From a virus, in IMG/VR virus record IMGVR_UViG_3300026078_000029, positions 3,042 through 67,041 of that record: a DNA stretch of 64,000 bases; one strand, written 5' to 3'. This document shows, one piece after another, positions 2 to 16,065 of this stretch. The notes below the pieces were generated by a model. That model did no database searches, was not told where the DNA came from, and saw only the letters and a program-made list of their open reading frames with translations. The translations under genes were made by a program, and so were the position numbers. Position 1 is the first letter of the stretch. Every line of letters begins with the position of its first letter.

Positions 2-2575
2 GCTAAATTAGACGCTGCAAGCGATAATTTACAGAAGATAGAGGAAGTGTCGCGCAAAGTTGGCTCAAAGACCTCGGCAGGCTTAAACGCCCGTAAAATG
101 ATGATACGGGATGATATGTCATTGGCTAACTTGGAAACAAAGAAGCGGGTGGCTTTGGGGCGTAAATTGACGACTGAGGAACGGGAGGATTTGCGTAAAG
201 TACATGAGGAGTACCATAAGCGCGAAAAGGAATATCAGGCTATCATTGATAAACTAACGCAAAAAAACCGTGATTTACAGGAACGGCAGGCGATTGAGAA
301 GTTGAAGGCTGAGGCGCGTAAGGAAGCTCGTACCAAACGCAGCGAGTCGCGTGGTGAAAACCGTGAAAAGTTGGTTCAGGATATTCGCGCTAAGTTAAAG
401 ATTGCGCGTACTTCTGAGCGACTTAACGTTTCCATACCATTTGCGCAGCAGGTAGCGGAACTATACAAAATTTCACCTGAACTGGCAAAGTTGGCGAAGT
501 CCTACATTGCAGAGGGTATCGATAAGTTGGAAGATCTGGTTGATAAGATACATGAGCAGTTGTCGGAGTATGACAAACGTGCTATTCGTGATGCGCTGAG
601 TGGCTACGGTAAACCAGTAGAGCGCGAAACAAAGCCTGAATCGCAGGCTAAATTGGACGCCTTAAAAACGCAGGCTAAGTTGCTGTCCAAGCTAGAGGAC
701 TTGCAGGCGAAGGAATATAAAGCACCTGAACGTAAAAAGGCGCAAATCAGCGCTGAAATAGCAGACCTGAAAAAGCAGGTTCGCGAGCTTATGCAGCCTG
801 ATATTTCACTCAAAGCCATCAAAACACGTACAGCTAACCAAATCAAAGAATATCAGCGCAGGTTGGCAGAGAAAGATTTTGAGTCTGCACTGAAAAGACC
901 ACCTACAGAACTTGACCCTGAAGCTATTAAGGCTAAGGCTGACTTGGAGCGGGTGCGAGATGAGTTTAACGCTGAACTGGAAAAAGACAGGTTAGCTAAT
1001 CGTGGCAATTGGGAGAAAGGATGGGATAAATTTTTAAAGTACCGTCGTGCTGAATTACTTCTCAACCTTTCAGGCGCGGCAAAGGTTGGTATGGCTTCTA
1101 TGTACCGTATCGTGAGCCAGCCATTACATGAGTTGGTTGGTTCAGTAGAACGGCAAGTGCCGGGACTAAAACAAATTGCTGAAAAAGCACCACGTGAGGG
1201 CTATGGTTTTGTGCCGGATGTGGAATGGAAGGCGCTTAAAACTGTTTGGAATGCTGATACGATTGCCGAAGTAAAAAAGAAGTTTAAGGGGCAGTTGGAC
1301 AATTTGGACACAGCCTTTGGTGATAAAAAAGAGCACTATGATGTTGATAGGTTACTTGACTTAGCAGGTAACATACACGCGGCCGAAAAAGAATTTGCCA
1401 AACAAAATGAGTTTAGACGTAGTGTCCTATTACGAACTAAGTACGCGGAAGAACATGGTGTCGACACAGGAAATCCATTCGTTCAGCTTCAAATAGGCAT
1501 CTCAGCATTGAAAGACGCCAACAGGCAGATATTTATGGCGGATAATGTGGCGACATCTGCGTACAGAGGGCTGTTGAGTTTGTTGGAAAGCAAATCATCC
1601 GAAACAAAATTTGGTAAAACGGCTAAAATAAGTGCAGGTATATTAAAACTTATGCTGCCAATAGTTAAAGTGCCTACTAACTACTTGATTGAAAAGGCTC
1701 AATATACACCGATATTAGGCGCTTTAAAGGCGGTTAATATCATGCGAAAAGGATTGGAAAAAATGACGCCCGATCAGGCAGACTATGTGATACGTATAAT
1801 GAAAAAGCAGGGTATTGGTGCAGGATTAGTTGCTATGGGGTATGCGCTTCCTGGTAACTTTGGCGGATTTTATATTCCTGGTAAAAAACGTGACGAGAAT
1901 GATGCTTTGGCCGCCAACGATGTATCGATATTAGGAGTTAAAATACCACACTTTTTAACACATACGCCATTGCTTACGCTTTTGCAGTTAGGCGCTACAA
2001 TAAGACGTGCAGCCGCAGGTGATGTGGCTATGGGAACAGCTAATGATTTTGCTGAAAGTACGCCTTTTTACGAAACACCAAAAGAGGCTGTAAAAGCTAT
2101 GGAAAATAGCAATAGCATGCAGCAATTCATAGGGAACACGTTACGGGGTCTTATCGTGCCTAATATGGTGTCACAGGTTGCTGAACATTATGATACAGAT
2201 GAAGAAGGGAATCAGGTCAAACGTGCGCCTAAGTCTGTTTTGCAAGGTATAGAGTCCGGAATTCCAGGATTGAGAGAACAAGTTTCTATCAAAAATCCTC
2301 ATCCGGGGTTTGATAAGATTATGATTGGTGACCATGAATACAAACTCAACAACCAACAGATACAGGAACGTCAAAAGTTCTACGAGGACTTTATGAAAAC
2401 AGAAGGCGCTAAAGCTATCAAGTTGGAGATAGCCAAAACGACCAATAAAGTCGAAAAAGAAAAGCTAACCAAGCGGCTTAAATCGATGGCGTCAAAAGTT
2501 AGTAAGCGAAAACTTGAGGCTAAGTACCACAATTCGGAAACAGGTGGATATGATTTTCAGGATGTGGAGGAATAA
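2..2575 (+). CDS. C-terminal part of a very large helical virion/ejected protein (5'-truncated)
   Basis: Frame is open from base 2; K/E/R-rich coiled coil followed by hydrophobic Gly/Ala segments typical of large injected proteins; would follow the ejection genes at the window end if the genome is circularly continuous. Confidence 0.6.
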   Translation, partial: AKLDAASDNLQKIEEVSRKVGSKTSAGLNARKMMIRDDMSLANLETKKRVALGRKLTTEEREDLRKVHEEYHKREKEYQAIIDKLTQKNRDLQERQAIEKLKAEARKEARTKRSESRGENREKLVQDIRAKLKIARTSERLNVSIPFAQQVAELYKISPELAKLAKSYIAEGIDKLEDLVDKIHEQLSEYDKRAIRDALSGYGKPVERETKPESQAKLDALKTQAKLLSKLEDLQAKEYKAPERKKAQISAEIADLKKQVRELMQPDISLKAIKTRTANQIKEYQRRLAEKDFESALKRPPTELDPEAIKAKADLERVRDEFNAELEKDRLANRGNWEKGWDKFLKYRRAELLLNLSGAAKVGMASMYRIVSQPLHELVGSVERQVPGLKQIAEKAPREGYGFVPDVEWKALKTVWNADTIAEVKKKFKGQLDNLDTAFGDKKEHYDVDRLLDLAGNIHAAEKEFAKQNEFRRSVLLRTKYAEEHGVDTGNPFVQLQIGISALKDANRQIFMADNVATSAYRGLLSLLESKSSETKFGKTAKISAGILKLMLPIVKVPTNYLIEKAQYTPILGALKAVNIMRKGLEKMTPDQADYVIRIMKKQGIGAGLVAMGYALPGNFGGFYIPGKKRDENDALAANDVSILGVKIPHFLTHTPLLTLLQLGATIRRAAAGDVAMGTANDFAESTPFYETPKEAVKAMENSNSMQQFIGNTLRGLIVPNMVSQVAEHYDTDEEGNQVKRAPKSVLQGIESGIPGLREQVSIKNPHPGFDKIMIGDHEYKLNNQQIQERQKFYEDFMKTEGAKAIKLEIAKTTNKVEKEKLTKRLKSMASKVSKRKLEAKYHNSETGGYDFQDVEE

Positions 2576-2581
2576 AACACT

Positions 2582-2812
2582 TCATCTTCTAAACTTTAAA
2601 TCAATATCCCTAATATTAGCCAACACACTTTCTCTTGTATAGCCTTTACCAAGATGGTAAACAACTTGCCCATCCTTGCTGTCTATAGCAAACGAGCCTC
2701 TTGAATCCAATTCATTTCTAATCAAGTCGGATGTTCTAAAATCTCTGTTTTCCCGCGCGGATATGCGCATATCGGTTAACTCGTCGGTTAAGAAGTCTTT
2801 GAAGTTTTCCAT
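2582..2812 (-). CDS. Stand-alone cysteinyl-tRNA synthetase C-terminal (anticodon-binding-like) domain protein
   Basis: R-x-x-AR-x-x-RDF-x-x-SDLIRNEL-x-x-RG-x-x-x-x-D-x-x-DG matches the CysS C-terminal motif. Confidence 0.6.
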   Translation of the reverse strand: MENFKDFLTDELTDMRISARENRDFRTSDLIRNELDSRGSFAIDSKDGQVVYHLGKGYTRESVLANIRDIDLKFRR

Positions 2813-3180
2813 AATTCTATTTCAAGTTCTTTACCGGTCAAAGCGAAGTAAAGGTTTTGGAATTGGTGAAGGTATTTAATCTTAATATCCTGGCCAGTAA
2901 TAGCGTGATAAAATGATTTGTTTTTATATATCAAACGCAGTTCTGATATATCATAGTAACACTCGTTGCCAAATTGTACCCTATCAAAAAACGTCTGATT
3001 AATTTTTTTAATATCTAATTTCTCTAATATTTCAGGCGTCAATGGTATTCCCTCAATATCTTCAAAGTTATCGAATCCCCAATTATTACTGCATATCATA
3101 AAATCTGAAATAGATGTTACTTTTAGTAACTGTCCTGGAGTTTTAATCCAGTTGCCTATTCTTAATTCGTTCGCTTCCAT
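2788..3180 (-). CDS. Conserved Bacteroidota phage protein (YopX-like)
   Basis: MEANELRIGNW, IPLTPEILEK and IKYLHQFQNLYFALTGKEL motifs. Confidence 0.6.
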   Translation of the reverse strand: MEANELRIGNWIKTPGQLLKVTSISDFMICSNNWGFDNFEDIEGIPLTPEILEKLDIKKINQTFFDRVQFGNECYYDISELRLIYKNKSFYHAITGQDIKIKYLHQFQNLYFALTGKELEIELWKTSKTS

Positions 3181-3261
3181 AATCCATATTGCTTTCCTCA
3201 AATTTAAACGCAAAAAACCGTATATCCAAATTCCCTATATTTACCCCTAAACAATAAGACA

Positions 3262-3600
3262 ATGGCAACAGTATTAGCGGGTAATAAGAACAATATTTAC
3301 ACTTGGGCTTTAAGCACCTCAGCAAAGACCTTAACGTTTTCTAATATCACTGGCTTTGACCTTGAAATGTCTTCATTGCAAAGCGTGTGGAGTGTTACAG
3401 CAAATAAGTATTTGACTTTGGGGGTAAATGTTGTTTCGTGTGCCATTGTGTATGCAGCGGGGTTGCCTACCTATGTTTATACATTTACGGCGATTGACTC
3501 AGGGATAGCCAATTCTGACACTCTGATAATAAGGCTCCAAATTCCTGATGCGTATTTAGACTATTCAGTACTCCTATACATTGCTGGCGCAACTATTTAA
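3262..3600 (+). CDS. Putative virion structural protein
   Basis: Thr/Ser/Val-rich beta-type protein heading the tail operon, downstream of TATATTTAC promoter-like box. Confidence 0.45.
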   Translation: MATVLAGNKNNIYTWALSTSAKTLTFSNITGFDLEMSSLQSVWSVTANKYLTLGVNVVSCAIVYAAGLPTYVYTFTAIDSGIANSDTLIIRLQIPDAYLDYSVLLYIAGATI

Positions 3601-5946: not shown

Positions 5947-8900
5947 ATGAAAAAGATTTTACTATATATACTGCTTTTACTACCTGCTTGGTGCTTCGCC
6001 CAACAAGCACAGCCCGTCAATCCTGTTCAAGTTACGCAGACTACGCTTTATAACGAGCCATCTACAGGCACTCGTTGGTGGTACAACGGTGCTACATTGG
6101 GTTGGTATCCGATATTTCCTTACAGTCCCCCAAATACCGTTCTAACTGGATTGGGAATGTCAGTAGTTTCGAGTACTCTGACTGTAGCTACTGGCACTTG
6201 GCGCATAAATAGTCAGGTTTACTCTTTATCTTCGCCTGCCAACTTTACATTACAAGCAAGAGACACCATTTATTCACGATACGAGACGGTATATGCTATT
6301 AAAGCGAATAATGGGATAGGGATAAAAGTAGGTCAGCTTTCTCCTACGCCCATACAGCCAACGGTAGGTGCTGATAGCCTTGTTGTTGGAGCGGCACTGA
6401 TTACACCCACTGTCACTATAGTTATTCCACCAGGGCCTTCCAATCAATTTGTATTCGCTATTCCGGGAGTGCAACAAAGCTACGCCAATCCTTGGGTAAG
6501 AACATTGAGAGCAGATACCATTAAAGTAGCAGGTAAATATATCTTTCCAAGCGTAGACGGCACATCAGCGCAGGTATTGCAAACGGATGGCTCGGGGCAT
6601 CTGTACTGGTCAAGTCAGGCAATCTATACGCCGGGATTTGGGTTAAATTTGAATGCGCAGGCATTTAGTGTAGATACAACTAAGATTGTAACCCTAACGG
6701 CAATGCTGGACACACTGCACAATAATGCAGCTCACTTTGACACTACCCAATTCAGCGTTGTGAATGATACGATACATTGTATAGCGTGTGGAGTTTCCGG
6801 CCCGACCATCTATACTGGTGACGGAACGTTAGCGTCAGATCGAACAGTTGCATTGAATAACCACTTCTTACAATTTACCGATACAAATTCGGGATATACA
6901 GGTAATTATAATTTCGGGAATAGTGGTTTTGTTGCTCATATAGATAATGGATCTGATAACGCCGAATTTAGTAGTTCTTCTGGCCCCGTGTCTGCCACCC
7001 TTGAGATAAATACCTTAAACCTGTCAAGCGGTAGAGGGTCATCTATACTTATGGGTAATTCCAATGACGGCATGAATATCCAACATCAGGACTACACATC
7101 AGGTCATCCCGTGCAAATTAGGTTAGGTGGAGACGGTCTCAGCGCATCGAATGCTATAGATAGTACTGGCATCCGGTATACATCATACACTGACTATTGG
7201 AGAGCCGACTCACTCACCTTAATGCCTAAACAATGGATTGAGGCTTATGTAGCTGCGCATAGCGGCGGCACAACTACAAATGCCGTTACTTTTAATAATT
7301 CAGGATCAGGAGCAGCAAGCGGAACTACATTCGATGGGTCATCAGCAAAAACGATAAGCTATAATACCATAGGCGCTCAGCAGACTTTAACGCTAACCAC
7401 AACGGGGACAAGCGGTGCGGCCACGTTGGTTAGTGGTACTTTAAATATACCGCAATATAGCGGAGCCACGGCAGGAAATCCGACCGGGTTACTAACCTTT
7501 ACAGCCGCAAACGGTACGGCCTCAACCTATAAGCGTTCAGACGGCCTAAATGCTATAGATAGTACGGTTGTAGCCAGTTATGCCAACCACCCTACCTTCG
7601 CACAATTACAGACGAAGGTAAATGGATATGTACCAACGTCTACAACAGTTGCGGGCTTCGCTCTTTCGTCAAATGTTACGTTAGCCAACCATGCACCTGG
7701 ATTCGGACTTTCGGGTTCTAACTACAATGGATCGGGGGCGCAGACGTGGATTGTCGATACTACGGCGATAGCTACTCCGTACTACGTGAAATGGGTGGCT
7801 GGCCCTGACGGCATTGTGAGCGGCATGTCTCCAACGACCATAAGCGGAACAACAGCTACTGTGCCATCCGGTGTATACAGGCTGAACAACTTGCTGATCA
7901 CTAAAGCTAGCAGCACGAATGTGACCATCGATGCGCAGGACGCTACTTTGAACAGGTATGATTTGATTGTTGGCGACGCATCTGGAGTACTGACTAAGGT
8001 ATCCGGTACACTTGGCACTGATGCTGCGCAGCCGGATGTCCCTGCAAATAAGGCACTGATAGCGTATATCTATATCCCTGCTACGGGCGGAACTGTAGTG
8101 AGCGGTGGAGGCGGCGGTAAAGGAACGACACAAAATGCACTTAGTGGCGGGTACGGAGTTGTACCGTTTACCTTCAATGGCGGTACGGCGGGAATCAAGG
8201 TAGTTGTGGATACGACGAGTTCAACAGGGTTGGTAAGCAAGGGGAGGTTGGCTACTAATTTAGGTGGCTATGTAAAAAGCGTTTCGGTAGCCTCTGCAAA
8301 CGGGCTAAGCGGCACTTCATCAGGTGGACAAACGCCATCGTTAACATTAACGTTAAGCACGATCAAACCTAACGTTGTCGCTCAAACTCCTGTGGGTACA
8401 GCAGGAACAGACTCTGTGATGGTAAAGCATAGTGATGGGACTATTAAAGCTATTAGCCCGACTTATTATGGGACGGGCGGAGGGTCTACTCTTACTTTTG
8501 GAACACACCTAACCAGCGGTGGCGCTTCTTATAACGGCTCTGCGCCGGTAACGATTACTTCTGATGCAACTAATGCAGCCACCGCAAGCACTATCATGTC
8601 CCGTGACGCAAATGCAAATGTAAATGCTAATAATTTAATATATAATTATACAACAACCGCGACAACAAATACTACTACCACATTAACTGTTTCGTCTGCC
8701 AAATTACAATATTTTACAGGGACACAGGCGCAAACCGTAGTGCTACCGAATGTATCCACTCTAGTCGTGGGTATGCGATATGAAATAGTTAGTCTACTGA
8801 CGGGGACTTCAACTATAAATGTACAATCATCTGGCGGTAATGCAATTGTATCCATAGCGGCAAATAACAATGCCGTTTTTACGGTAATAAGTACATCTGG

Positions 8901-9690
8901 AACCGGCGCATCTAGTTGGGCTTTTCAATATTTCCCATCTTTAGATAATACAGGATTATTAAATATAAATTCGTTAAATGCTTCTACGCAAATTGTTTCA
9001 GGATATATACTGGCTACATCAGCTCTTGAAACAGCAGGGAATCCAGCGAATACAAACTTCATGGCCACTGGTGGTGGCAGTATGGGAAGTGACAATACAA
9101 ATCCTACTTTCGGAGGGGCAACAAAAACATCTCAAAGAGTGATGTTTAATGGAGGCAGCACCGGAACTGTTCCCAATACAGATAATTATGCCAATGTAAT
9201 ATTTGGGTCTACGCCATTTTCAGTGGCCAATGCAACAACTATTCCATGGGGGACAAATGTAGCTATAAAAGCACCCGGAACAATAACGCTTTCAGGTACC
9301 GGTACTGTGACCAATACAGCTTCTCTATACATTGATGGAGTAAGTTCTACAGGAACAAATAATTATGCTGTATATGTAGCAAGCGGTAACACTAACGTAG
9401 CGTCATTAAACACCGCTTTTGTTTCTAAATCGGCAAATTATACGTTAACAGACAATGACTATAGCGTTCTATCGAGCGGAAGCGGAACAACTATCACATT
9501 ACCTACAGCAGTAGGCAGATTAGGGCGAATATATACGATTAAACGAAACGACGGTACTAATACACAGACAGTAGGAACAACAAGTTCCCAAACTATTGAT
9601 GGTTCAACAACTTATTCGCTTTCAGCGGATAAAAAATATGTTACCGTTCAAAGTGATAATGCAAACTGGTGGATTATAGCAAATAATTAA
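5947..9690 (+). CDS. Long tail-fibre-like/adhesin protein with Sec signal peptide
   Basis: MKKILLYILLLLPAWCFA/Q; fibre motifs DGTSAQVLQTDGSGHLYW and a C-terminal ITLPTAVG...YTIKR...TIDG...VQSDNANW domain; Gly/Thr/Ser-rich. Confidence 0.7.
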   Translation: MKKILLYILLLLPAWCFAQQAQPVNPVQVTQTTLYNEPSTGTRWWYNGATLGWYPIFPYSPPNTVLTGLGMSVVSSTLTVATGTWRINSQVYSLSSPANFTLQARDTIYSRYETVYAIKANNGIGIKVGQLSPTPIQPTVGADSLVVGAALITPTVTIVIPPGPSNQFVFAIPGVQQSYANPWVRTLRADTIKVAGKYIFPSVDGTSAQVLQTDGSGHLYWSSQAIYTPGFGLNLNAQAFSVDTTKIVTLTAMLDTLHNNAAHFDTTQFSVVNDTIHCIACGVSGPTIYTGDGTLASDRTVALNNHFLQFTDTNSGYTGNYNFGNSGFVAHIDNGSDNAEFSSSSGPVSATLEINTLNLSSGRGSSILMGNSNDGMNIQHQDYTSGHPVQIRLGGDGLSASNAIDSTGIRYTSYTDYWRADSLTLMPKQWIEAYVAAHSGGTTTNAVTFNNSGSGAASGTTFDGSSAKTISYNTIGAQQTLTLTTTGTSGAATLVSGTLNIPQYSGATAGNPTGLLTFTAANGTASTYKRSDGLNAIDSTVVASYANHPTFAQLQTKVNGYVPTSTTVAGFALSSNVTLANHAPGFGLSGSNYNGSGAQTWIVDTTAIATPYYVKWVAGPDGIVSGMSPTTISGTTATVPSGVYRLNNLLITKASSTNVTIDAQDATLNRYDLIVGDASGVLTKVSGTLGTDAAQPDVPANKALIAYIYIPATGGTVVSGGGGGKGTTQNALSGGYGVVPFTFNGGTAGIKVVVDTTSSTGLVSKGRLATNLGGYVKSVSVASANGLSGTSSGGQTPSLTLTLSTIKPNVVAQTPVGTAGTDSVMVKHSDGTIKAISPTYYGTGGGSTLTFGTHLTSGGASYNGSAPVTITSDATNAATASTIMSRDANANVNANNLIYNYTTTATTNTTTTLTVSSAKLQYFTGTQAQTVVLPNVSTLVVGMRYEIVSLLTGTSTINVQSSGGNAIVSIAANNNAVFTVISTSGTGASSWAFQYFPSLDNTGLLNINSLNASTQIVSGYILATSALETAGNPANTNFMATGGGSMGSDNTNPTFGGATKTSQRVMFNGGSTGTVPNTDNYANVIFGSTPFSVANATTIPWGTNVAIKAPGTITLSGTGTVTNTASLYIDGVSSTGTNNYAVYVASGNTNVASLNTAFVSKSANYTLTDNDYSVLSSGSGTTITLPTAVGRLGRIYTIKRNDGTNTQTVGTTSSQTIDGSTTYSLSADKKYVTVQSDNANWWIIANN

Positions 9691-9691
9691 C

Positions 9692-10057
9692 ATGAAAAAA
9701 TACATCACATTATTATTCCTGATAGCAGCTATCGGAGCAAGTGCGCAGACAAGGGTCACAAGCGTGGCTTTAGGCGATCAGATATGGCTACCGAGGGGCG
9801 CAGTTGAAATAGCACCTATTCCTATAAATATGGCAAAGGATTCTGTTAGAACGATGTCATATACCTTTCTTTCTCCGCGCGATACAACAGCCGTAACTAT
9901 AATAAGTGTTTTTGGTTATGATAAAAATGGAACAGCTATTTATAACACACAAATTTCATTAGTGGGTACAGCGTACCACAAATGGAAGTCGCTTATTACC
10001 CCTTTGGATAGCTACATATCCACACAGCTTAAACGAATAACTCAGTTAACCCAATGA
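9692..10057 (+). CDS. Small secreted protein (possible fibre chaperone)
   Basis: MKKYITLLFLIAAIGASA/Q signal peptide; directly follows fibre gene. Confidence 0.55.
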   Translation: MKKYITLLFLIAAIGASAQTRVTSVALGDQIWLPRGAVEIAPIPINMAKDSVRTMSYTFLSPRDTTAVTIISVFGYDKNGTAIYNTQISLVGTAYHKWKSLITPLDSYISTQLKRITQLTQ

Positions 10058-10248
10058 CCTTCACCACCATCATACAAGCCATCGACCCGCATACAGGCGA
10101 ATTCGCGGAGTACGCAGGCCCACTGATTGAGGCTGATAGTTGGGAGCAGGCACAGTTACGATGCGACACGCTTGGGTTAGGCTATTGCAAGGTTGATGGA
10201 GAATTTACAGGAGAACATACACATATTTTTAAACACGAACTAAATTAA
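10054..10248 (+). CDS. Hypothetical phage protein
   Basis: ATGA overlap; 64-aa ORF. Confidence 0.5.
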   Translation: MTFTTIIQAIDPHTGEFAEYAGPLIEADSWEQAQLRCDTLGLGYCKVDGEFTGEHTHIFKHELN

Positions 10249-10255
10249 AATCACA

Positions 10256-10420
10256 ATGGGAGACTTACAACAAATCATTAGCGACCTGATTAATCAGCAT
10301 GGTCAGGAAGCGGTACAAGAGGCGGTTAATAAGCATGTGGCGAATACAAGCGGGGCTACGCCTACCTGCCCAAAAGGCTATTACTGGAACGGCTCTGAAT
10401 GCGTTTTGGACGTAGGATGA
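10256..10420 (+). CDS. 54-aa peptide with C-terminal Cys loop (CPKGYYWNGSEC); absent from ORF track
   Basis: Translated by hand; A-rich leader; TGA overlaps ATG of next gene. Confidence 0.7.
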   Translation: MGDLQQIISDLINQHGQEAVQEAVNKHVANTSGATPTCPKGYYWNGSECVLDVG

Positions 10421-10788
10421 AGGCAAGGCTCATTATAACAACATTCGCGCTAATCTTATATCTGGCTTTGTTCAACCTGTATATATTTGAAATTAAGCGC
10501 CTCGATATTCAGTCCTATAAACTGTTTTACAATTACCTAACGGCAGGAATGACCGTTTTTTATGTAGCCGATTGGAAGGCAGGATTTGTAAATAGGTATC
10601 ACGAACATATAAATTTTATTTGTATATTGTGCGTATTAGTTAACTATTTAATAATAATCCTTACACATCACACAGTGTTACATCAAGATAAACCAATAGA
10701 GTTGTTCTATGCTTTTAACGGCTCGGTTTTTGCAGTTACGGTATTGATTGTTATTAACTTCATTAAGCATGGCTACTATAAAAGCTAA
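10417..10788 (+). CDS. Four-helix integral membrane protein
   Basis: Four hydrophobic stretches; ATGA-coupled to the peptide gene. Confidence 0.7.
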   Translation: MKARLIITTFALILYLALFNLYIFEIKRLDIQSYKLFYNYLTAGMTVFYVADWKAGFVNRYHEHINFICILCVLVNYLIIILTHHTVLHQDKPIELFYAFNGSVFAVTVLIVINFIKHGYYKS

Positions 10789-10789
10789 G

Positions 10790-11038
10790 ATGGCAAATTT
10801 ACCTATCCCTACTAATCAATGGTTGCAGCTTTTTGAAGACCTGTTGCCGTATTGTACCGTTTTTGGTTTATGTTGGAAAGCATTTGACCTTGTGTTTAAA
10901 TATTTTTCGGACAAGCAAAAGGAGGCCGTTAAGGAACTTATACGAACAGAAGTGAAGCCCGACATTGAAAGGCTGAACGGCAATTTTGAGAGTTTAGAGA
11001 AAGCTATTTGGGCCTTAGAGAAAAAGATCATATCATGA
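10790..11038 (+). CDS. Single-TM protein with C-terminal coiled coil (holin-like)
   Basis: LLPYCTVFGLCWKAFDLVF segment then heptad-rich tail. Confidence 0.5.
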   Translation: MANLPIPTNQWLQLFEDLLPYCTVFGLCWKAFDLVFKYFSDKQKEAVKELIRTEVKPDIERLNGNFESLEKAIWALEKKIIS

Positions 11039-11427
11039 AACTCAGCGTCCTTTGCCTCGATGACGAACCCGTAATCCTTGAATGGATGAGGCACGTATTT
11101 GAAGATGAGGTGTACGACCTGAAAACCTTCAAAGAGCCGCAGGAATTTATAGCTGCATTCACTGCCGACACCGACCTTGTCATTACCGATATGCGCGTAC
11201 CTGGTTACGACCTGTACTCTACGCTCGAACACTTCCACGAGATCAATAAGGGTGTTTACATTATTGTTATTTCGGCCTACTTCGACGATGCTATTTACGA
11301 ACGGCTGTTTGAACTTGGCGTTGACCGTGTGATACAAAAAAATAAGCCAGAATGGATTCATAAGATCGGGCAGTATGTCAATGAGCTGTTTCCACGTATC
11401 CATCAACGCGCGCAATTATCACAGTAA
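11035..11427 (+). CDS. Stand-alone CheY-like response regulator receiver domain
   Basis: LDDEP acidic pocket, ITDMRVPG phospho-acceptor Asp, ISAY switch Ser, IQK Lys all present. Confidence 0.9.
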   Translation: MKLSVLCLDDEPVILEWMRHVFEDEVYDLKTFKEPQEFIAAFTADTDLVITDMRVPGYDLYSTLEHFHEINKGVYIIVISAYFDDAIYERLFELGVDRVIQKNKPEWIHKIGQYVNELFPRIHQRAQLSQ

Positions 11428-11582
11428 TGGATGCGGGGCTTATTACTCTGGTTTTGGCTATCATAGGTTTTGCAGCAGGGTTTATTAAACTTTACGTAGA
11501 CAATGTGGATTTGAAAAGGGAGTTAGAACGAAAGGACGAGAAGATCGCTGAATTAAAAGAGTTTATAAAAGACTCGAAATGA
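11427..11582 (+). CDS. 51-aa single-TM plus coiled-coil protein; absent from ORF track
   Basis: MDAGLITLVLAIIGFAAGFIKLYVDNVDLKRELERKDEKIAELKEFIKDSK; TAATG-coupled. Confidence 0.65.
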   Translation: MDAGLITLVLAIIGFAAGFIKLYVDNVDLKRELERKDEKIAELKEFIKDSK

Positions 11583-11600
11583 ATTTGTAACTTTATTAGC

Positions 11601-13436
11601 ATGAAACGATTACTCTCCCTAATTATTTTCCTTCTCCCCCTATTCACCCATGCCCAATACATCTCCGGTTGCGGCCCGTACACCACTTCGGGGCCAATAA
11701 CACTCGCGTCTAATACCACAGTAAGCGGCAAGTTGATTGACCTCGCAGGCGCGAATACAGTAGGTATAACAGGCAACGGCGTTACCAACGTTCATATCAC
11801 CAAGTGTAAGATCATCAATAACACCAACTTCGGCATTTTACTTAATGGCTGTACCAATATCACAATTGACTCTTGCTATATTTCTAACGTTGGTTTCGGA
11901 GTATACGCGCAATCAGGGTCGTCGCAGATAAAAGTTAATGGCAATTACTTTCTGAATATCAACGGCATCAGCACCGCCTTTCTCGGGCATGCGGTTCAGT
12001 TTAATGGCGTTAATGGCGGTGGTAGCCAAATCAATAATAATAGGGTAGAGAACATTGCGGGCGTGGCAATCCATCCTCACGATATGCTGAACGTTTACCA
12101 ATCTAATGGCCTGCCGGGCGACTCCATACAGGTTATAGGAAACTGGGTAAGAGGAGGACAGTACTACTTCTGGCCAGACGCTAATAGTGGCGCAGCGGGG
12201 ATTATTATGGGGGATGTGGGCGGGTCATACCAAGTATGCAGGAATAACATACTCGTTAATACAGGATATTCCGGCATTCAATGCAACGGCACAGGAACGC
12301 ATATTAAGATTGATCATAACCAAATGTTCAGCACCTATGCGCCGGTATCGCATCAGGCAATCACTATTTTAGATGCTAATCAGATTGAATGCAGTTATAA
12401 CCAAACGAACTGGACGAACTATAATAACCTGAATGTGCTTTATTCAGACGGGGAGACGCAATACTACCTCGGGTCAACTCCGTCACCGACTCCTGTAGGC
12501 TTTGCTACCAATACTTGGAAAGCGAACATTACGGCGAATATTCTGCCATCTTCGCTGATTCCAGCCTGCGGGACTACGGCAACTCGGCCAAACATAGCAT
12601 ACAATCCGACTATCTACATCTTTACGGTTGGCGTTTCAGCATCCATAGGCGCGCCAACGAATAGTGGGGGCAATGGGACGTTTAGCGTATCGCCTGCGTT
12701 GCCTACTGGGCTTACATTGAGTTCTACGGGCGCAATCTCGGGAGTGCCGTCAGTGGCAACGGCGCAGGGGGTGTATACAGTTAGTTGTGTGAATAGCGGT
12801 GGCAGCAGCTCTGTCCCCTTGCAGATCACAATAAATAATCCTGTTGTAGCTGTTCCAAAAATAACGTACAATCCTAATACGGTAAATGTAACCGTTAGCA
12901 GCACTATACCGACCTTGAACCCTTCAAGCAGTGGGGGCGCGGTAGCAAGTTGGGGAATCTCACCATCTTTACCAAGCAATTTGACATTCGTTAACGGAGT
13001 AATTTCCGGGCAGGCTTTAACTACCCAGGCATCTACGCCATATGTTGTGAGCGCAACCAATGCAAGTGGCGTATCTAATGCCACCGTTTATATCCAGGTA
13101 AATCCGCAGCCTCCGTTAGCACCGTCAATAAGTTATCCGGCTTCGAGTTATGCATTACAACAGAATACAAGTATAACCATTCAGCCCACAAATAGTGGGG
13201 GAGTTGGGATGTATGCCGTTACGGCGGGGAGTCTTCCCGCTTCGTTGAGTCTAAATTCACAAACAGGCGTTATTCAAGGTAGTTTAACGGCCATACAGAG
13301 TCCGACGAATGTGACAATAACCTGTACGAATGCCACCGGCAGCAGCCCATTTGTAATTAGCTTTGGGGTTAATGCTGCACCGACCAATCACTGGTTTCTG
13401 ATCAACAATACATGGTTCGGGCCTGTGTTTCAGTAG
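11601..13436 (+). CDS. Secreted right-handed beta-helix protein with three putative Ig (He_PIG-like) domains; possible polysaccharide-binding/depolymerase
   Basis: Signal peptide MKRLLSLIIFLLPLFTHA/Q; Asn-ladder beta-helix repeats; three LP-x-x-L-x-x-x-x-G-x-I-x-G repeats. Confidence 0.75.
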   Translation: MKRLLSLIIFLLPLFTHAQYISGCGPYTTSGPITLASNTTVSGKLIDLAGANTVGITGNGVTNVHITKCKIINNTNFGILLNGCTNITIDSCYISNVGFGVYAQSGSSQIKVNGNYFLNINGISTAFLGHAVQFNGVNGGGSQINNNRVENIAGVAIHPHDMLNVYQSNGLPGDSIQVIGNWVRGGQYYFWPDANSGAAGIIMGDVGGSYQVCRNNILVNTGYSGIQCNGTGTHIKIDHNQMFSTYAPVSHQAITILDANQIECSYNQTNWTNYNNLNVLYSDGETQYYLGSTPSPTPVGFATNTWKANITANILPSSLIPACGTTATRPNIAYNPTIYIFTVGVSASIGAPTNSGGNGTFSVSPALPTGLTLSSTGAISGVPSVATAQGVYTVSCVNSGGSSSVPLQITINNPVVAVPKITYNPNTVNVTVSSTIPTLNPSSSGGAVASWGISPSLPSNLTFVNGVISGQALTTQASTPYVVSATNASGVSNATVYIQVNPQPPLAPSISYPASSYALQQNTSITIQPTNSGGVGMYAVTAGSLPASLSLNSQTGVIQGSLTAIQSPTNVTITCTNATGSSPFVISFGVNAAPTNHWFLINNTWFGPVFQ

Positions 13437-13485
13437 CCTTTCACGCGCTGTGCTAAGCGCTTTTTCATAGGTAATAAATTGGTAG

Positions 13486-13514
13486 AGTCTTGGCGCGAGG
13501 TCAGGACTTTTTTT
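13486..13514 (+). terminator. Intrinsic terminator
   Basis: AGTCTTG/CAGGACT stem plus T tract. Confidence 0.6.
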
Positions 13515-13558
13515 GTATATTTACAACGAGCAATGTAGCTCAATTAAAATCTTACATT

Positions 13559-14068
13559 ATGTCACGTATCACAAAACAGATAGCTGAAGCTGTCGCCAAT
13601 CAACTTGTTTTACCTAAAAGGCAAGAACTTCAAAAGGAAGAACAAAAATTACATCAAATTACTACCGACATTTATTTAAAGCACATTCCGTCACAGGTAA
13701 TGGATGCTTATGATAAGTATCATGAATGGTTTAATAAAACCGAATCCGTTTATTTAAACACTAACGGTTTTAATTATGAATATTTAGCGTTAACAAAAAA
13801 TTATCCAAAACAACGTAATAAATACCCTGAGTTTACAGCCGCTGAATCAGCCAAAATAAGAGTTCAATTTGACATAGTGGCCGATTTGAAAAAATCAATA
13901 GAAAAGTTAAAATTTGATATTGAAACCGCTGTATTTAATTTACGTACTTATAGCAATGTCGAAAAAGAATTTCCAGAGGCGTTTAAATTGTTACCAGCTA
14001 AACAAACAACTGCGCTGATAGTTAATTTAAAAGACATTCGCTGTCAACTGGACAAAGCAAACTGCTAA
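13559..14068 (+). CDS. Nmad5-like (nucleotide-modification-associated domain) protein
   Basis: RITKQIAEAV...IP...L..IETAVFNLRTYSNVEKEFPEA pattern; low GC, own promoter-like box and terminator. Confidence 0.6.
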   Translation: MSRITKQIAEAVANQLVLPKRQELQKEEQKLHQITTDIYLKHIPSQVMDAYDKYHEWFNKTESVYLNTNGFNYEYLALTKNYPKQRNKYPEFTAAESAKIRVQFDIVADLKKSIEKLKFDIETAVFNLRTYSNVEKEFPEAFKLLPAKQTTALIVNLKDIRCQLDKANC

Positions 14069-14098
14069 AGGTTTGTAAGATTTCCAATAGTAGCTAAG

Positions 14099-14123
14099 AG
14101 CCTCATTAACTTGGGGCTTTTTT
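14099..14123 (+). terminator. Intrinsic terminator
   Basis: AGCCTCA/TGGGGCT stem plus T tract. Confidence 0.6.
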
Positions 14124-14393: not shown

Positions 14394-14486
14394 ATGGTAC
14401 TCACACTTTTCCTTATTGCATTTGCCCTGTTCATTTTCTTGACGGGCCTCTGTATGGAGTTGGATGAAAGGCAGGGGAGAAGATGA
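14394..14486 (+). CDS. 30-aa transmembrane peptide coupled to endolysin
   Basis: MVLTLFLIAFALFIFLTGLCMELDERQGRR; ATGA overlap with lysin start. Confidence 0.5.
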   Translation: MVLTLFLIAFALFIFLTGLCMELDERQGRR

Positions 14487-15115
14487 TACGCGGAACAGAC
14501 CGATCTCACTGGAATGCAAAAGTCTCGTTGTCCGATTTGGTAGCAAAAGGTGTAAAATTTATCTGGTTCAAATCAACTCAGGCAGACACCTACCAAGACC
14601 CGACGTTTAACACTTCATGGCAAGAGGCTAAAGCAACTACTGGCCTTATTCGAGGGGCCTATCATTTCTTTGACCCTCGTATTGACGGCATAATCCAGGC
14701 TAAGCATTATTTAGCTACAGGCATCAACTTTTCAAACGAGGGTTGCCTTATGCCTTGTGTTGACGTAGAAGACCTCACAGGCAGTGACGCGGCTCAAGCT
14801 AACAGATGGGTTGCTGTTAACTATAAGATCGCTATAACGCGCCTAAATGACTTCTTGGGCTATGTTAAAGAGCACACTAACAGGGATTGCATGATCTATA
14901 CGTACAATAACTATCCTAAAGAGTATTTTCACGGATATGGGTTTCCAGTTAACCCGATGTGGCTATCTTCGCTACAGACCAACTGTCCCAACCGATATGA
15001 TACCGGGAAGCAGCCTGAATTTTGGCAGTGGACGTACAATTGGAATGGGACGGATATGGATGGTAACTATTTTACAGGCACACAGGACGAGTTAAATAAA
15101 TTGGCAAACTTGTAG
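14483..15115 (+). CDS. GH25 muramidase endolysin
   Basis: GTDRSHWN, GAYHFF, DVE catalytic motif, FWQWT, DMDGN. Confidence 0.9.
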   Translation: MIRGTDRSHWNAKVSLSDLVAKGVKFIWFKSTQADTYQDPTFNTSWQEAKATTGLIRGAYHFFDPRIDGIIQAKHYLATGINFSNEGCLMPCVDVEDLTGSDAAQANRWVAVNYKIAITRLNDFLGYVKEHTNRDCMIYTYNNYPKEYFHGYGFPVNPMWLSSLQTNCPNRYDTGKQPEFWQWTYNWNGTDMDGNYFTGTQDELNKLANL

Positions 15116-15136: not shown

Positions 15137-15367
15137 ATGGAACAATCAAAATTCTTATCACTGAACTGGGGAGATGTGCTAAAGGGTCTTATCATGGCAG
15201 TTGGCACACCTGCATTGCTGATTATTCAACAAGCCATAGCAAATGGACAGTTTGTATTCAATTGGAAGCAAATCGGCATGGCGGCTATCGCGGGGGGCGT
15301 GGCTTATTTACTGAAAAACTTCTTTACGCCTCCTGCGTCGAAGTCGGATAGCCCGGTGGCGAAATAA
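15137..15367 (+). CDS. Holin (2 TM)
   Basis: SKFLSLNWGDVLKGLIMAV...AGGVAYLLKNFFT; follows lysin. Confidence 0.75.
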   Translation: MEQSKFLSLNWGDVLKGLIMAVGTPALLIIQQAIANGQFVFNWKQIGMAAIAGGVAYLLKNFFTPPASKSDSPVAK

Positions 15368-15381
15368 ATCACAAACTAATT

Positions 15382-16065
15382 TCAAGTTCCTTGCCATGCC
15401 GACCCCCAATTGCAACTATTATTGTCTTTTGGATATGGCAAAGGGGCGTGTTTTAGTTTATTAATAATATTCTTCCTTTGCTTTTTATGGAGTATATATA
15501 AATATCTGTGTTTTTTCTTGGTTTCAATTCTTCTATAATTTGGATCTATTTTAAGAAGTTCAACGGTATTGATAGTCCCAAATTTAGCCACTACACTTCT
15601 TGGATGCATTATTTCGCCGTTTATTTGATGTAAGTACCCTTTAATAAGCATCGTATTATTCCCTTGATAAATCCAATTAGTTGCTTGATAAATTACTCCA
15701 ACATGCCCAGCCATTGGGTCGGAATAGCTTATTAATACTTTTATTGATGTGTGCTGCCTTAGCCAATCAAATGTCATAGCTATAAAATGGGATTCTGAAT
15801 TTTTAGGTTCTTCGTCCCTTAGCCATAATCTTGTCAATTCCAATACCTCATTATTTTCAAGGTCTACAGTTATACTTTTCACGGTTTGGCGACCGATCGG
15901 GAAACCATATATGGCTATTCCGCATAGCTCGTCAATGTCATTGAATAGGCCTATTGAATATCTACATGAAGTCCATTTGTGAGAATAATGGTTTTTTATT
16001 ATAGTAGCTTTGGCTACTTCCTTATCTATAATGGAGATGTGATAATTCTTCATTAGTCCGGTCAT
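15382..16065 (-). CDS. mom: Mom-like adenine modification enzyme (GNAT-fold)
   Basis: NHYSHK, LELTRLWL, NSESHFI, LISYSDP..GHVGVIYQATNWIYQG motifs. Confidence 0.8.
   Translation of the reverse strand: MTGLMKNYHISIIDKEVAKATIIKNHYSHKWTSCRYSIGLFNDIDELCGIAIYGFPIGRQTVKSITVDLENNEVLELTRLWLRDEEPKNSESHFIAMTFDWLRQHTSIKVLISYSDPMAGHVGVIYQATNWIYQGNNTMLIKGYLHQINGEIMHPRSVVAKFGTINTVELLKIDPNYRRIETKKKHRYLYILHKKQRKNIINKLKHAPLPYPKDNNSCNWGSAWQGT

Follow-up and report, generated by a model that had tools for sequence, protein, structure and literature searches.

Single-domain response regulators (CheY-FliM, Spo0F, DivK, CpdR) act by protein contact, and receiver-only proteins such as Spo0F serve as phosphate shuttles or sinks. 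The time of lysis sets the burst size and fitness of a phage, and the lambda S105/S107 and T4 T/RI systems of small membrane proteins control this timing. We know of no lysis regulator that uses a two-component receiver domain, and to our knowledge none of the described timers (holin clocks, antiholins, lysis inhibition of the T4 and N4 types) uses host two-component chemistry. Here we analyze a stand-alone receiver gene and its small neighbors in an uncultured soil phage. The analyzed DNA, below called the window, is a stretch of 64,000 nucleotides corresponding to bases 3042-67041 of the 67,041-bp IMG/VR virus record IMGVR_UViG_3300026078_000029. Five open reading frames (ORFs) at positions 10256-11582, which an earlier note on this DNA had interpreted as one signaling unit, are almost certainly two independently inherited cassettes lying side by side.

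The first cassette comprises a Cys-hairpin peptide of 54 amino acids (aa; 10256..10420), a 123-aa protein of an unnamed family with four transmembrane helices (4-TM; 10417..10788) and, usually, an 82-aa helical protein (10790..11038); this set is widespread, has no name and does without a receiver. The second is a conserved co-translated pair formed by a kinase-less single-domain receiver (REC) protein of 130 aa (11035..11427) and a small single-pass membrane protein of 51 aa (11427..11582). All five genes are on the plus strand. On re-reading the sequence, the ORFs and their junctions were found exactly as the earlier note had described them: ATGA overlaps between the peptide and 4-TM genes and between the 82-aa and receiver genes, a 1-nt gap between the 4-TM and 82-aa genes, and TAATG between the receiver and 51-aa genes. 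All five ORFs are under purifying selection, with ratios of nonsynonymous to synonymous substitution rates (dN/dS) of 0.00-0.24 in comparison with two relatives. The highest values belong to the peptide with its variable linker (0.19-0.24), those of the other proteins being 0.03-0.05 (4-TM), 0.00-0.03 (82-aa) and 0.02 (receiver). These are real late genes in a cluster of small membrane proteins between the tail-fiber genes and the GH25 endolysin gene (14483-15115), a position that had been recognized correctly. The five ORFs have no natural boundary at 10256, because three upstream ORFs (5947-9690, 9692-10057, 10054-10248) are joined in the same tight manner. A scan of 5947-13436 revealed no strong terminator-like hairpin. 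Nine terminator-like hairpins were observed vs. 9.9 ± 3.2 in shuffled sequences, which is no excess, and the two longest (11 and 10 pairs, at 13484-13510 and 14096-14121) both lie only 3' of the 611-aa gene. Predicted co-transcription of the five genes with the tail-fiber and beta-helix genes fits this arrangement.

The phylogenetic distribution of the two cassettes is different. Whole-record searches covered nine related records with the peptide and 4-TM pair, seven of them 100% complete (related loci are given L numbers; L097 and L010 were left out of these searches). The receiver domain PF00072 occurs in 0/7 complete records, and among all nine only the nearest relative, 91% identical, has it. 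In the receiver relatives L010 and L006 (49% and 40% identity, respectively), a gene for a single-pass helical protein is still present 3' of the receiver gene, its start codon overlapping the receiver stop codon. Their receiver genes are preceded by genes for a small helical peptide, a 4-TM protein of about 115 aa and a TM-helical protein; these peptides contain no Cys hairpin, and the hidden Markov model of the 4-TM family misses their 4-TM proteins (E 0.46 and 3). The L004 locus shares 90% nucleotide identity with the window over 10052-11043 and then diverges, so that genes for an 89-aa TM-helical and a 95-aa multi-TM protein replace the receiver and 51-aa genes. In other relatives the same slot is occupied by the L004-type pair, by a C-terminally anchored helical protein of 132-137 aa, or directly by the CHAP endolysin gene; the 137-aa slot protein of one relative has a weak PHROG "hemolysin" match (E 0.0014), the only one of this kind. 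Because the two sets occur independently across phages, the earlier proposal that the peptide and the 4-TM protein feed into the receiver is unsupported. Independent occurrence had been named in advance as evidence against a common unit, and the outcome is mixed: the five-gene unit splits, but the receiver and 51-aa pair stays linked.

A boundary between the cassettes at the receiver start codon can be observed in the window (11035-11043), in L004 (about 6616-6623) and in a 170-nt contig from another sample (run X12), which matches the window from 11035 on and has 44 unlike bases before that point. The contig is a weak hint at a breakpoint exactly at the start codon, and the pattern suggests gene-boundary recombination between the cassettes. 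Homing-endonuclease genes (GIY-YIG, HNH_3) are inserted between the membrane cluster and the endolysin gene in L095 (8182-8808) and L096 (9424-9993), and the region therefore appears to be a recombination hotspot.

Its profile match places the receiver in the CheY-like family (PF00072, residues 5-103, 54.9 bits vs. a cut-off of 30.2; 54.6 bits in the whole-genome search). Pfam finds no other domain in its 130 aa, in agreement with the earlier note, which had seen no output domain. The closest relative in PDB is Spo0F (E 7e-9). The family consists of 14 clusters with 49-98% identity, all of 130-133 aa, longer fused forms not having been searched for. In a 17-sequence alignment, which includes two extra members taken from the loci and reaches down to 40% identity, D10, D52, S80 and K102 are invariant (17/17) and D9 is nearly so; thus the acidic pair, the phospho-acceptor Asp, the Ser and the Lys noticed earlier are all in place and the phospho-acceptor pocket is intact. 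The C-terminal helix is also conserved (W107, Y114, N116, L118, P120). The invariance of the four pocket residues and the dN/dS of 0.02 suggest a functional receiver. Kinase and phosphotransferase domains (HATPase_c, HisKA, Hpt) have 0 matches in the full 67,041-bp record, which extends to the whole genome the earlier observation that a histidine kinase is missing; a HATPase_c search of four other phage records with a receiver gave no match either (0/4). With neither a kinase or Hpt nor an output domain among these assignments, the region does not amount to a complete two-component system or phosphorelay.

A tblastn search of GenBank phages with the receiver yielded no match at E≤1e-3, and a scan of 185,579 species genomes with two peptide patterns, by which members may be missed, detected none. 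A metagenome scan with the receiver alignment produced mostly generic bacterial regulators, and 2 of the 80 loci kept are family members. A distant receiver (28% identity, PF00072 90 bits) is encoded in L007, a complete phage of 94 kb, at 2220-3541. Its neighbors are a TM-helical protein of 146 aa and a multi-TM protein of 150 aa, and the group lies beside baseplate-like genes, with no lysin seen nearby; this is a third occurrence of a receiver with membrane neighbors.

The 51-aa protein, with a TM segment at residues 4-22 and a charged helical tail, is the fixed downstream partner of the receiver. Its equivalents follow the receiver gene with overlapping stop and start codons in L003, L010 and L006, so that in 4/4 family loci the receiver and a single-pass helical membrane protein are translated together. 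The C-terminal motif of the downstream protein in L010 is almost that of the window protein. A 50-aa homolog has a diverged TM segment and an identical stretch of 17 C-terminal residues; the longest contig of its cluster and that of a 70%-identical receiver cluster both measure 5,044 bp, a hint that the two lie on one contig. In ten such single-pass proteins, the N-terminal flank of the TM segment is net negative in nine and the C-terminal flank net positive in eight. By the positive-inside rule (N-out/C-in), the helical tails probably face the cytoplasm. Complex prediction for the receiver (17-row alignment) and the 51-aa protein (5 rows) scored 0.00 vs. a mark of 0.32, a result that weighs neither way.

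In the first cassette, the peptide has a variable helical N-terminus and a conserved C-terminal part, C-x2-G-Y-Y-W-x5-C-V-x-D-V-G. C38, G41, Y42, W44, C49 and G54 are invariant in ten homologs, and the AlphaFold2 (AF2) model contains helices at 4-31 and a beta-hairpin at 42-44/49-51 (mean predicted local distance difference test, pLDDT, 66). In all 11 contigs, the window included, an ORF of 39-60 aa ending in C-x2-G-Y-[YV]-W-x(5-7)-C-[VI]-x-[DN]-x-G lies directly 5' of the 4-TM gene, in most cases overlapping it by 4 nt. A relaxed form of the motif has only four further matches in all six frames of about 0.8 Mb, each in a frame of 24-25 codons. The N-terminal part is acidic and helical in some members and Lys/Pro-rich in others. 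Of the "helical leader-like N-terminus and loop" of the earlier note, the helix stands and the loop is a conserved C-terminal hairpin, but the N-terminus is hypervariable and contains no hydrophobic signal segment. Since the peptide has no signal peptide, its disulfide is not assured. Protein Atlas contains nothing for it. A dual-start holin/antiholin motif was considered and rejected, as only 5/10 loci contain the upstream in-frame ATG (10399 in the window); this ATG is a by-product of the overlapping Cys codon.

The AF2 model of the 4-TM protein consists of four helices (2-24, 31-54, 60-84, 93-117; pLDDT 83, predicted TM-score 0.74). An exhaustive profile search revealed 140 representative clusters at 50% identity with E≤1e-3, 84 of them with E≤1e-10; nearly all members are stand-alone proteins of similar length, and IMG/VR contains ten other contigs with this family. 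It has no match in Pfam or NCBIfam and one weak match in PHROGs (phrog_19469, E 0.0063, function unknown); tblastn against GenBank phages and the pattern-based scan of the same 185,579 species genomes, which may miss members, detected no relative, and in Protein Atlas it falls into unnamed clusters only. Foldseek comparison of the model with PDB gave 0 matches at E≤1e-3, the top weak ones being the generic four-helix TM bundle of pentameric ligand-gated channels. An AgrB-like protease, an idea prompted by a His/Cys-rich stretch, was rejected: several members have other residues in place of the Cys of the ICILC stretch, so the Cys is not conserved; H62 is substituted in L097 and L098, and Pfam gives no match. 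The 82-aa protein has an N-terminal Pro-rich stretch, a marginal hydrophobic segment at 18-36 (best 19-residue Kyte-Doolittle mean 1.39 vs. a threshold of 1.6) and an amphipathic helical tail; a homolog of this type follows the 4-TM gene in 8/10 loci examined.

The small membrane proteins had been called holin-like; no holin family was matched in Pfam, PHROGs or NCBIfam. The 4-TM and 51-aa proteins do have the holin feature of a small protein with at least one TM segment, a feature that is unspecific. Spanins of the Rz/Rz1 type, in which a protein with one N-in TM segment and a periplasmic coiled coil has a lipoprotein partner, are not indicated either, with PHROG Rz-like matches at only E 0.12-0.14, an N-out/C-in charge bias and no signal peptide with a lipobox Cys in any of the five ORFs. 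Candidate assignments as a GtrA-like flippase, a PorX mimic, an Rz-type spanin or XhlA were rejected for lack of a significant match of the window proteins in Pfam, PHROGs and NCBIfam. On the basis of these profile searches, the region appears to fall outside all described holin and spanin families. The 4-TM protein and the peptide might conceivably form a holin-like channel whose peptide cofactor is set free upon permeabilization.

For the second cassette, a tentative scenario can be proposed. The receiver would obtain its phosphoryl group from a host histidine kinase or from acetyl phosphate and would then act by protein contact, in the manner of CheY or DivK, on the cytoplasmic tail of its partner and possibly also on the tail of the 82-aa protein. 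This contact would bias a late membrane event, most probably the time of membrane permeabilization for lysis, a function suggested by gene position only. The whole chain, from a host-phosphorylated receiver through its membrane partner to a late event that is most likely lysis timing, is a possibility that we favor without being confident that it will hold. As to position, nine loci were checked, and each has an endolysin-type gene (GH25, M15 or CHAP) in the same orientation at a distance of 0-4.3 kb on the 3' side. It is directly adjacent only in L095 (CHAP). Genes that separate the membrane cluster from the endolysin gene encode beta-helix proteins and, in some loci, homing endonucleases.

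A similar layout is found in two cultured Alteromonas phages. In phage R8W (vB_AmeP_R8W), the tail-fiber gene gp45 is followed by the class II holin gene gp46 and by gp47, gp48 and gp49, of which gp47 encodes a 98-aa protein with an N-terminal TM segment and a helical tail, gp48, which overlaps each of its neighbors by 4 nt, a 153-aa protein whose only domain is PF00072 (77 bits), and gp49 a 130-aa membrane protein. No kinase was found in R8W by a HATPase_c search. The R8W paper labels gp48 a DNA-binding PhoB auxiliary metabolic gene (PMC8228385). In the Alteromonas siphophage R9Y2 (vB_AmaS-R9Y2), a 150-aa receiver 47% identical to R8W gp48 lies between gp13 (121 aa, TM segment and helical tail) and a lysozyme gene (gp13-gp11), all joined by 4-nt overlaps. 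Thus, as in the window, a receiver-only gene is joined by overlapping stop and start codons to a gene for a membrane-anchored helical protein, here beside a holin (R8W) or lysozyme (R9Y2) gene; unlike the window, the host belongs to another phylum and the membrane partner is encoded upstream of the receiver, not downstream. The proposed scenario, if true, would also make the annotation of such auxiliary genes as "PhoB" in cultured marine phages incorrect. The R8W receiver matches 99 of 50,697 GenBank phage records, many of which resemble bacterial contigs filed as phage (e.g., 250-380 kb, with phoB/creB/rstA annotations); therefore, genuine receiver genes are rare in deposited phages. Full-text literature searches, supplementary files excluded, retrieved no paper on a phage receiver domain acting in lysis.

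Several observations weigh against a role of the receiver in lysis timing. In the window, the receiver is 2.9 kb away from the endolysin gene, with the 611-aa beta-helix gene and another ORF between them, and a separate two-TM holin candidate follows the endolysin gene directly. The cluster is equally near the tail-fiber genes; therefore, a role in entry, exclusion or receptor masking agrees with the position just as well. Seven complete relatives do without the receiver, which is thus dispensable in the lineage. Among the five proteins there is no match to a holin, antiholin or spanin family, the Rz-like PHROG matches already mentioned being the best. The charge bias of the window's own 51-aa protein is ambiguous, with -1 on both flanks. 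Finally, the Alteromonas examples are analogous in layout and not demonstrably orthologous, the tblastn search with the window receiver having detected none of them at E≤1e-3.

Another scenario is a decoy for host takeover, in which the receiver is a phosphate sink or competitor for a host two-component pathway (e.g., envelope stress or the Bacteroidota PorXY/type IX secretion system) and its membrane-gene neighbors are incidental. The intact pocket and the lack of a phage kinase agree with this scenario, since any phosphoryl group must then be host-derived; so do the similarity to Spo0F, itself a receiver-only protein, and the accessory status of the receiver in the lineage, which is shared by many host-takeover genes. 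We nevertheless consider a decoy unlikely. The gene belongs to a predicted late structural and lysis operon, with no strong terminator-like hairpin from 5947 to 13436, and not to an early region; it is constantly coupled in translation to the gene for a single-pass helical protein (4/4 family loci); and neither specific similarity to a named host regulator (NCBIfam matches are far below cut-offs, PorX at E 0.0014) nor, in the two-pattern scan, any relative in the species genomes was found.

Less probable still is superinfection exclusion or receptor masking by the whole small-membrane-protein cluster, with the receiver modulating exclusion and not lysis. In coliphages, Cor and Llp genes sit beside receptor-binding genes, and the cluster analyzed here is located directly 3' of tail-fiber genes in every locus, while a separate holin candidate is available beside the endolysin gene. 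However, known exclusion lipoproteins have a signal peptide with a lipobox, which none of the five ORFs encodes, the L095 trio abuts the CHAP endolysin gene, and in R9Y2 the receiver gene overlaps the lysozyme gene. It is improbable that the receiver is a pseudo-receiver, that is, a phosphorylation-independent structural adaptor of a membrane complex. The aromatic switch position, which we take to be Val from a hand alignment of K102 to CheY K109, the absence of Pro after the Lys of the receiver and the unusually conserved C-terminal helix are in line with such an adaptor, but all phosphorylation-site residues are invariant in sequences down to 40% identity, which would not be expected if phosphorylation were irrelevant. 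Finally, a single agr- or quorum-like unit, in which the 4-TM protein processes or exports the peptide and the signal reaches the receiver via a host phosphorelay, is suggested by the translational coupling of all five genes, by the helical N-terminus and conserved hairpin of the peptide and by the strict peptide/4-TM linkage (11/11 contigs), but is very improbable. As far as gene content can tell, it is already refuted for the most part, the two sets occurring independently of each other (7/7 complete relatives without a receiver; receiver relatives without the hairpin peptide or the 4-TM family). Also against it are the lack of a hydrophobic signal in a peptide whose "leader" is hypervariable and whose C-terminus is conserved, and the absence of an AgrB match at E≤1 and of a conserved Cys in the 4-TM protein, of a kinase and of a LytTR output domain.

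The proposed action of the receiver on its membrane partner can be extended to a more general statement. Kinase-less receivers tethered to or co-translated with N-out single-pass helical proteins would be a widespread, unrecognized input device by which tailed phages of unrelated hosts (Bacteroidota here, Alteromonas in culture) read host phospho-signaling or acetyl phosphate and set the time of lysis. Separately, the peptide and its 4-TM partner would make up a new and common piece of membrane machinery in the late or lysis region of relatives of Bacteroidota phages. In this general form we regard the proposal as doubtful.

The record is that of a lytic phage of 67 kb, with a CheckV completeness of 100%. 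This rating and the genes for a large terminase, a portal protein, helicases and virion proteins bear out the phage origin assumed in the earlier note. The terminase matches 89 GenBank phage records, every one below 60% identity, among them 68 Flavobacterium, 15 Cellulophaga, 2 Tenacibaculum and 1 Maribacter phages. Because these matches are mainly phages of Flavobacterium and Cellulophaga, the host is probably a member of Bacteroidota. At the DNA level, positions 9000-14000 of the window have no match in GenBank phages.

Upstream of the peptide gene, and ATGA-coupled to the gene preceding it, lies a gene for a 64-aa soluble protein (10054..10248, plus strand) that is kept in close relatives only (dN/dS 0.04-0.11). 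The tail-fiber-like and beta-helix/He_PIG proteins encoded at 5947-9690, 9692-10057 and 11601-13436 start with M-K-K, a hydrophobic run and A/S/G-Q, and the same M-K-K start is observed in L004 (3575-5638) and L006 (4372-5970 and 9605-11122). This start looks like a secretion signal of the Bacteroidota type, which is surprising for virion proteins, as these assemble in the cytoplasm; the proteins may be secreted and depolymerase-like and not parts of the tail. The endolysin (14483..15115, plus strand) belongs to family GH25 (Pfam Glyco_hydro_25, E 1.5e-31; PHROG endolysin families). Directly 3' of it, the separate holin candidate is a 76-aa two-TM protein (15137..15367, plus strand) with no match to a named family and 47% identity to a 99-aa protein of L095. 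Two distinct unnamed two-TM families occur after or near endolysin genes (L004 10450-10758, L006 11772-12029, window 15137-15367, L095 9065-9364); in these four phages none of the proteins matches a described holin family, and they are likely the true holins. A gene for a Mom-like DNA-modification protein (15382-16065, minus strand; phrog_1384, E 9e-62) faces the end of the late operon.

Comparison with described systems delimits what is new in this region. The earlier note had set it apart from agr and arbitrium, and both distinctions hold: for agr, the region lacks an AgrB match, a conserved catalytic Cys, a kinase and a LytTR output domain; for arbitrium, the 54-aa peptide has no N-terminal secretion signal, although no search was aimed at an AimR-type receptor. 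The resemblance to agr (AgrD/AgrB/AgrC/AgrA) consists in a short peptide with an amphipathic N-terminus beside a small multi-pass protein, with a receiver gene near, whereas here the conserved part of the peptide is its C-terminal hairpin, and peptide and receiver are inherited independently. The C-x-x-G-[YF]-x-W...C hairpin itself resembles the last disulfide-closed (C5-C6) hairpin of EGF-like domains, and Pfam EGF_3 and cEGF match weakly over residues 37-50 (E 0.18-0.2). However, the peptide has two Cys residues whereas EGF has six, in three disulfides, and the EGF_3 score of 12.5 bits vs. a cut-off of 28.5 places the peptide outside the family. Together with its 4-TM partner, the peptide constitutes a sizeable unannotated family (140 clusters, no name, no fold relative) with a fixed place in the phages examined, which are relatives of Bacteroidota phages.

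Holin/antiholin systems (lambda S105/S107, T4 T/RI, N4 gp62/gp63) share with the region small membrane proteins near an endolysin gene and cytoplasmic regulatory surfaces; they differ in having no sequence or profile similarity to the window proteins, and the dual-start motif is present in only half of the loci. For N4, a preprint proposes a cytoplasmic signal that acts on the pinholin, and the "Receiver domain" named there is merely a name for a region of gp63, an unrelated usage (PMC12642591). With the single-domain response regulators, the window protein shares the receiver-only architecture, the length of about 130 aa and the complete set of acidic pocket, phospho-Asp, Ser and Lys. It differs from them in being encoded by a phage whose genome contains no cognate kinase or phosphotransferase, in being co-translated with a single-pass membrane protein within a predicted late structural and lysis operon, and in the family-specific conserved motif of its C-terminal helix. 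New here is thus a single-domain response regulator in an undescribed phage setting, beside an unnamed and sizeable peptide and 4-TM family; if the proposed scenario is true, a receiver wired to late membrane genes would give the phage a direct readout of host physiology at its exit.

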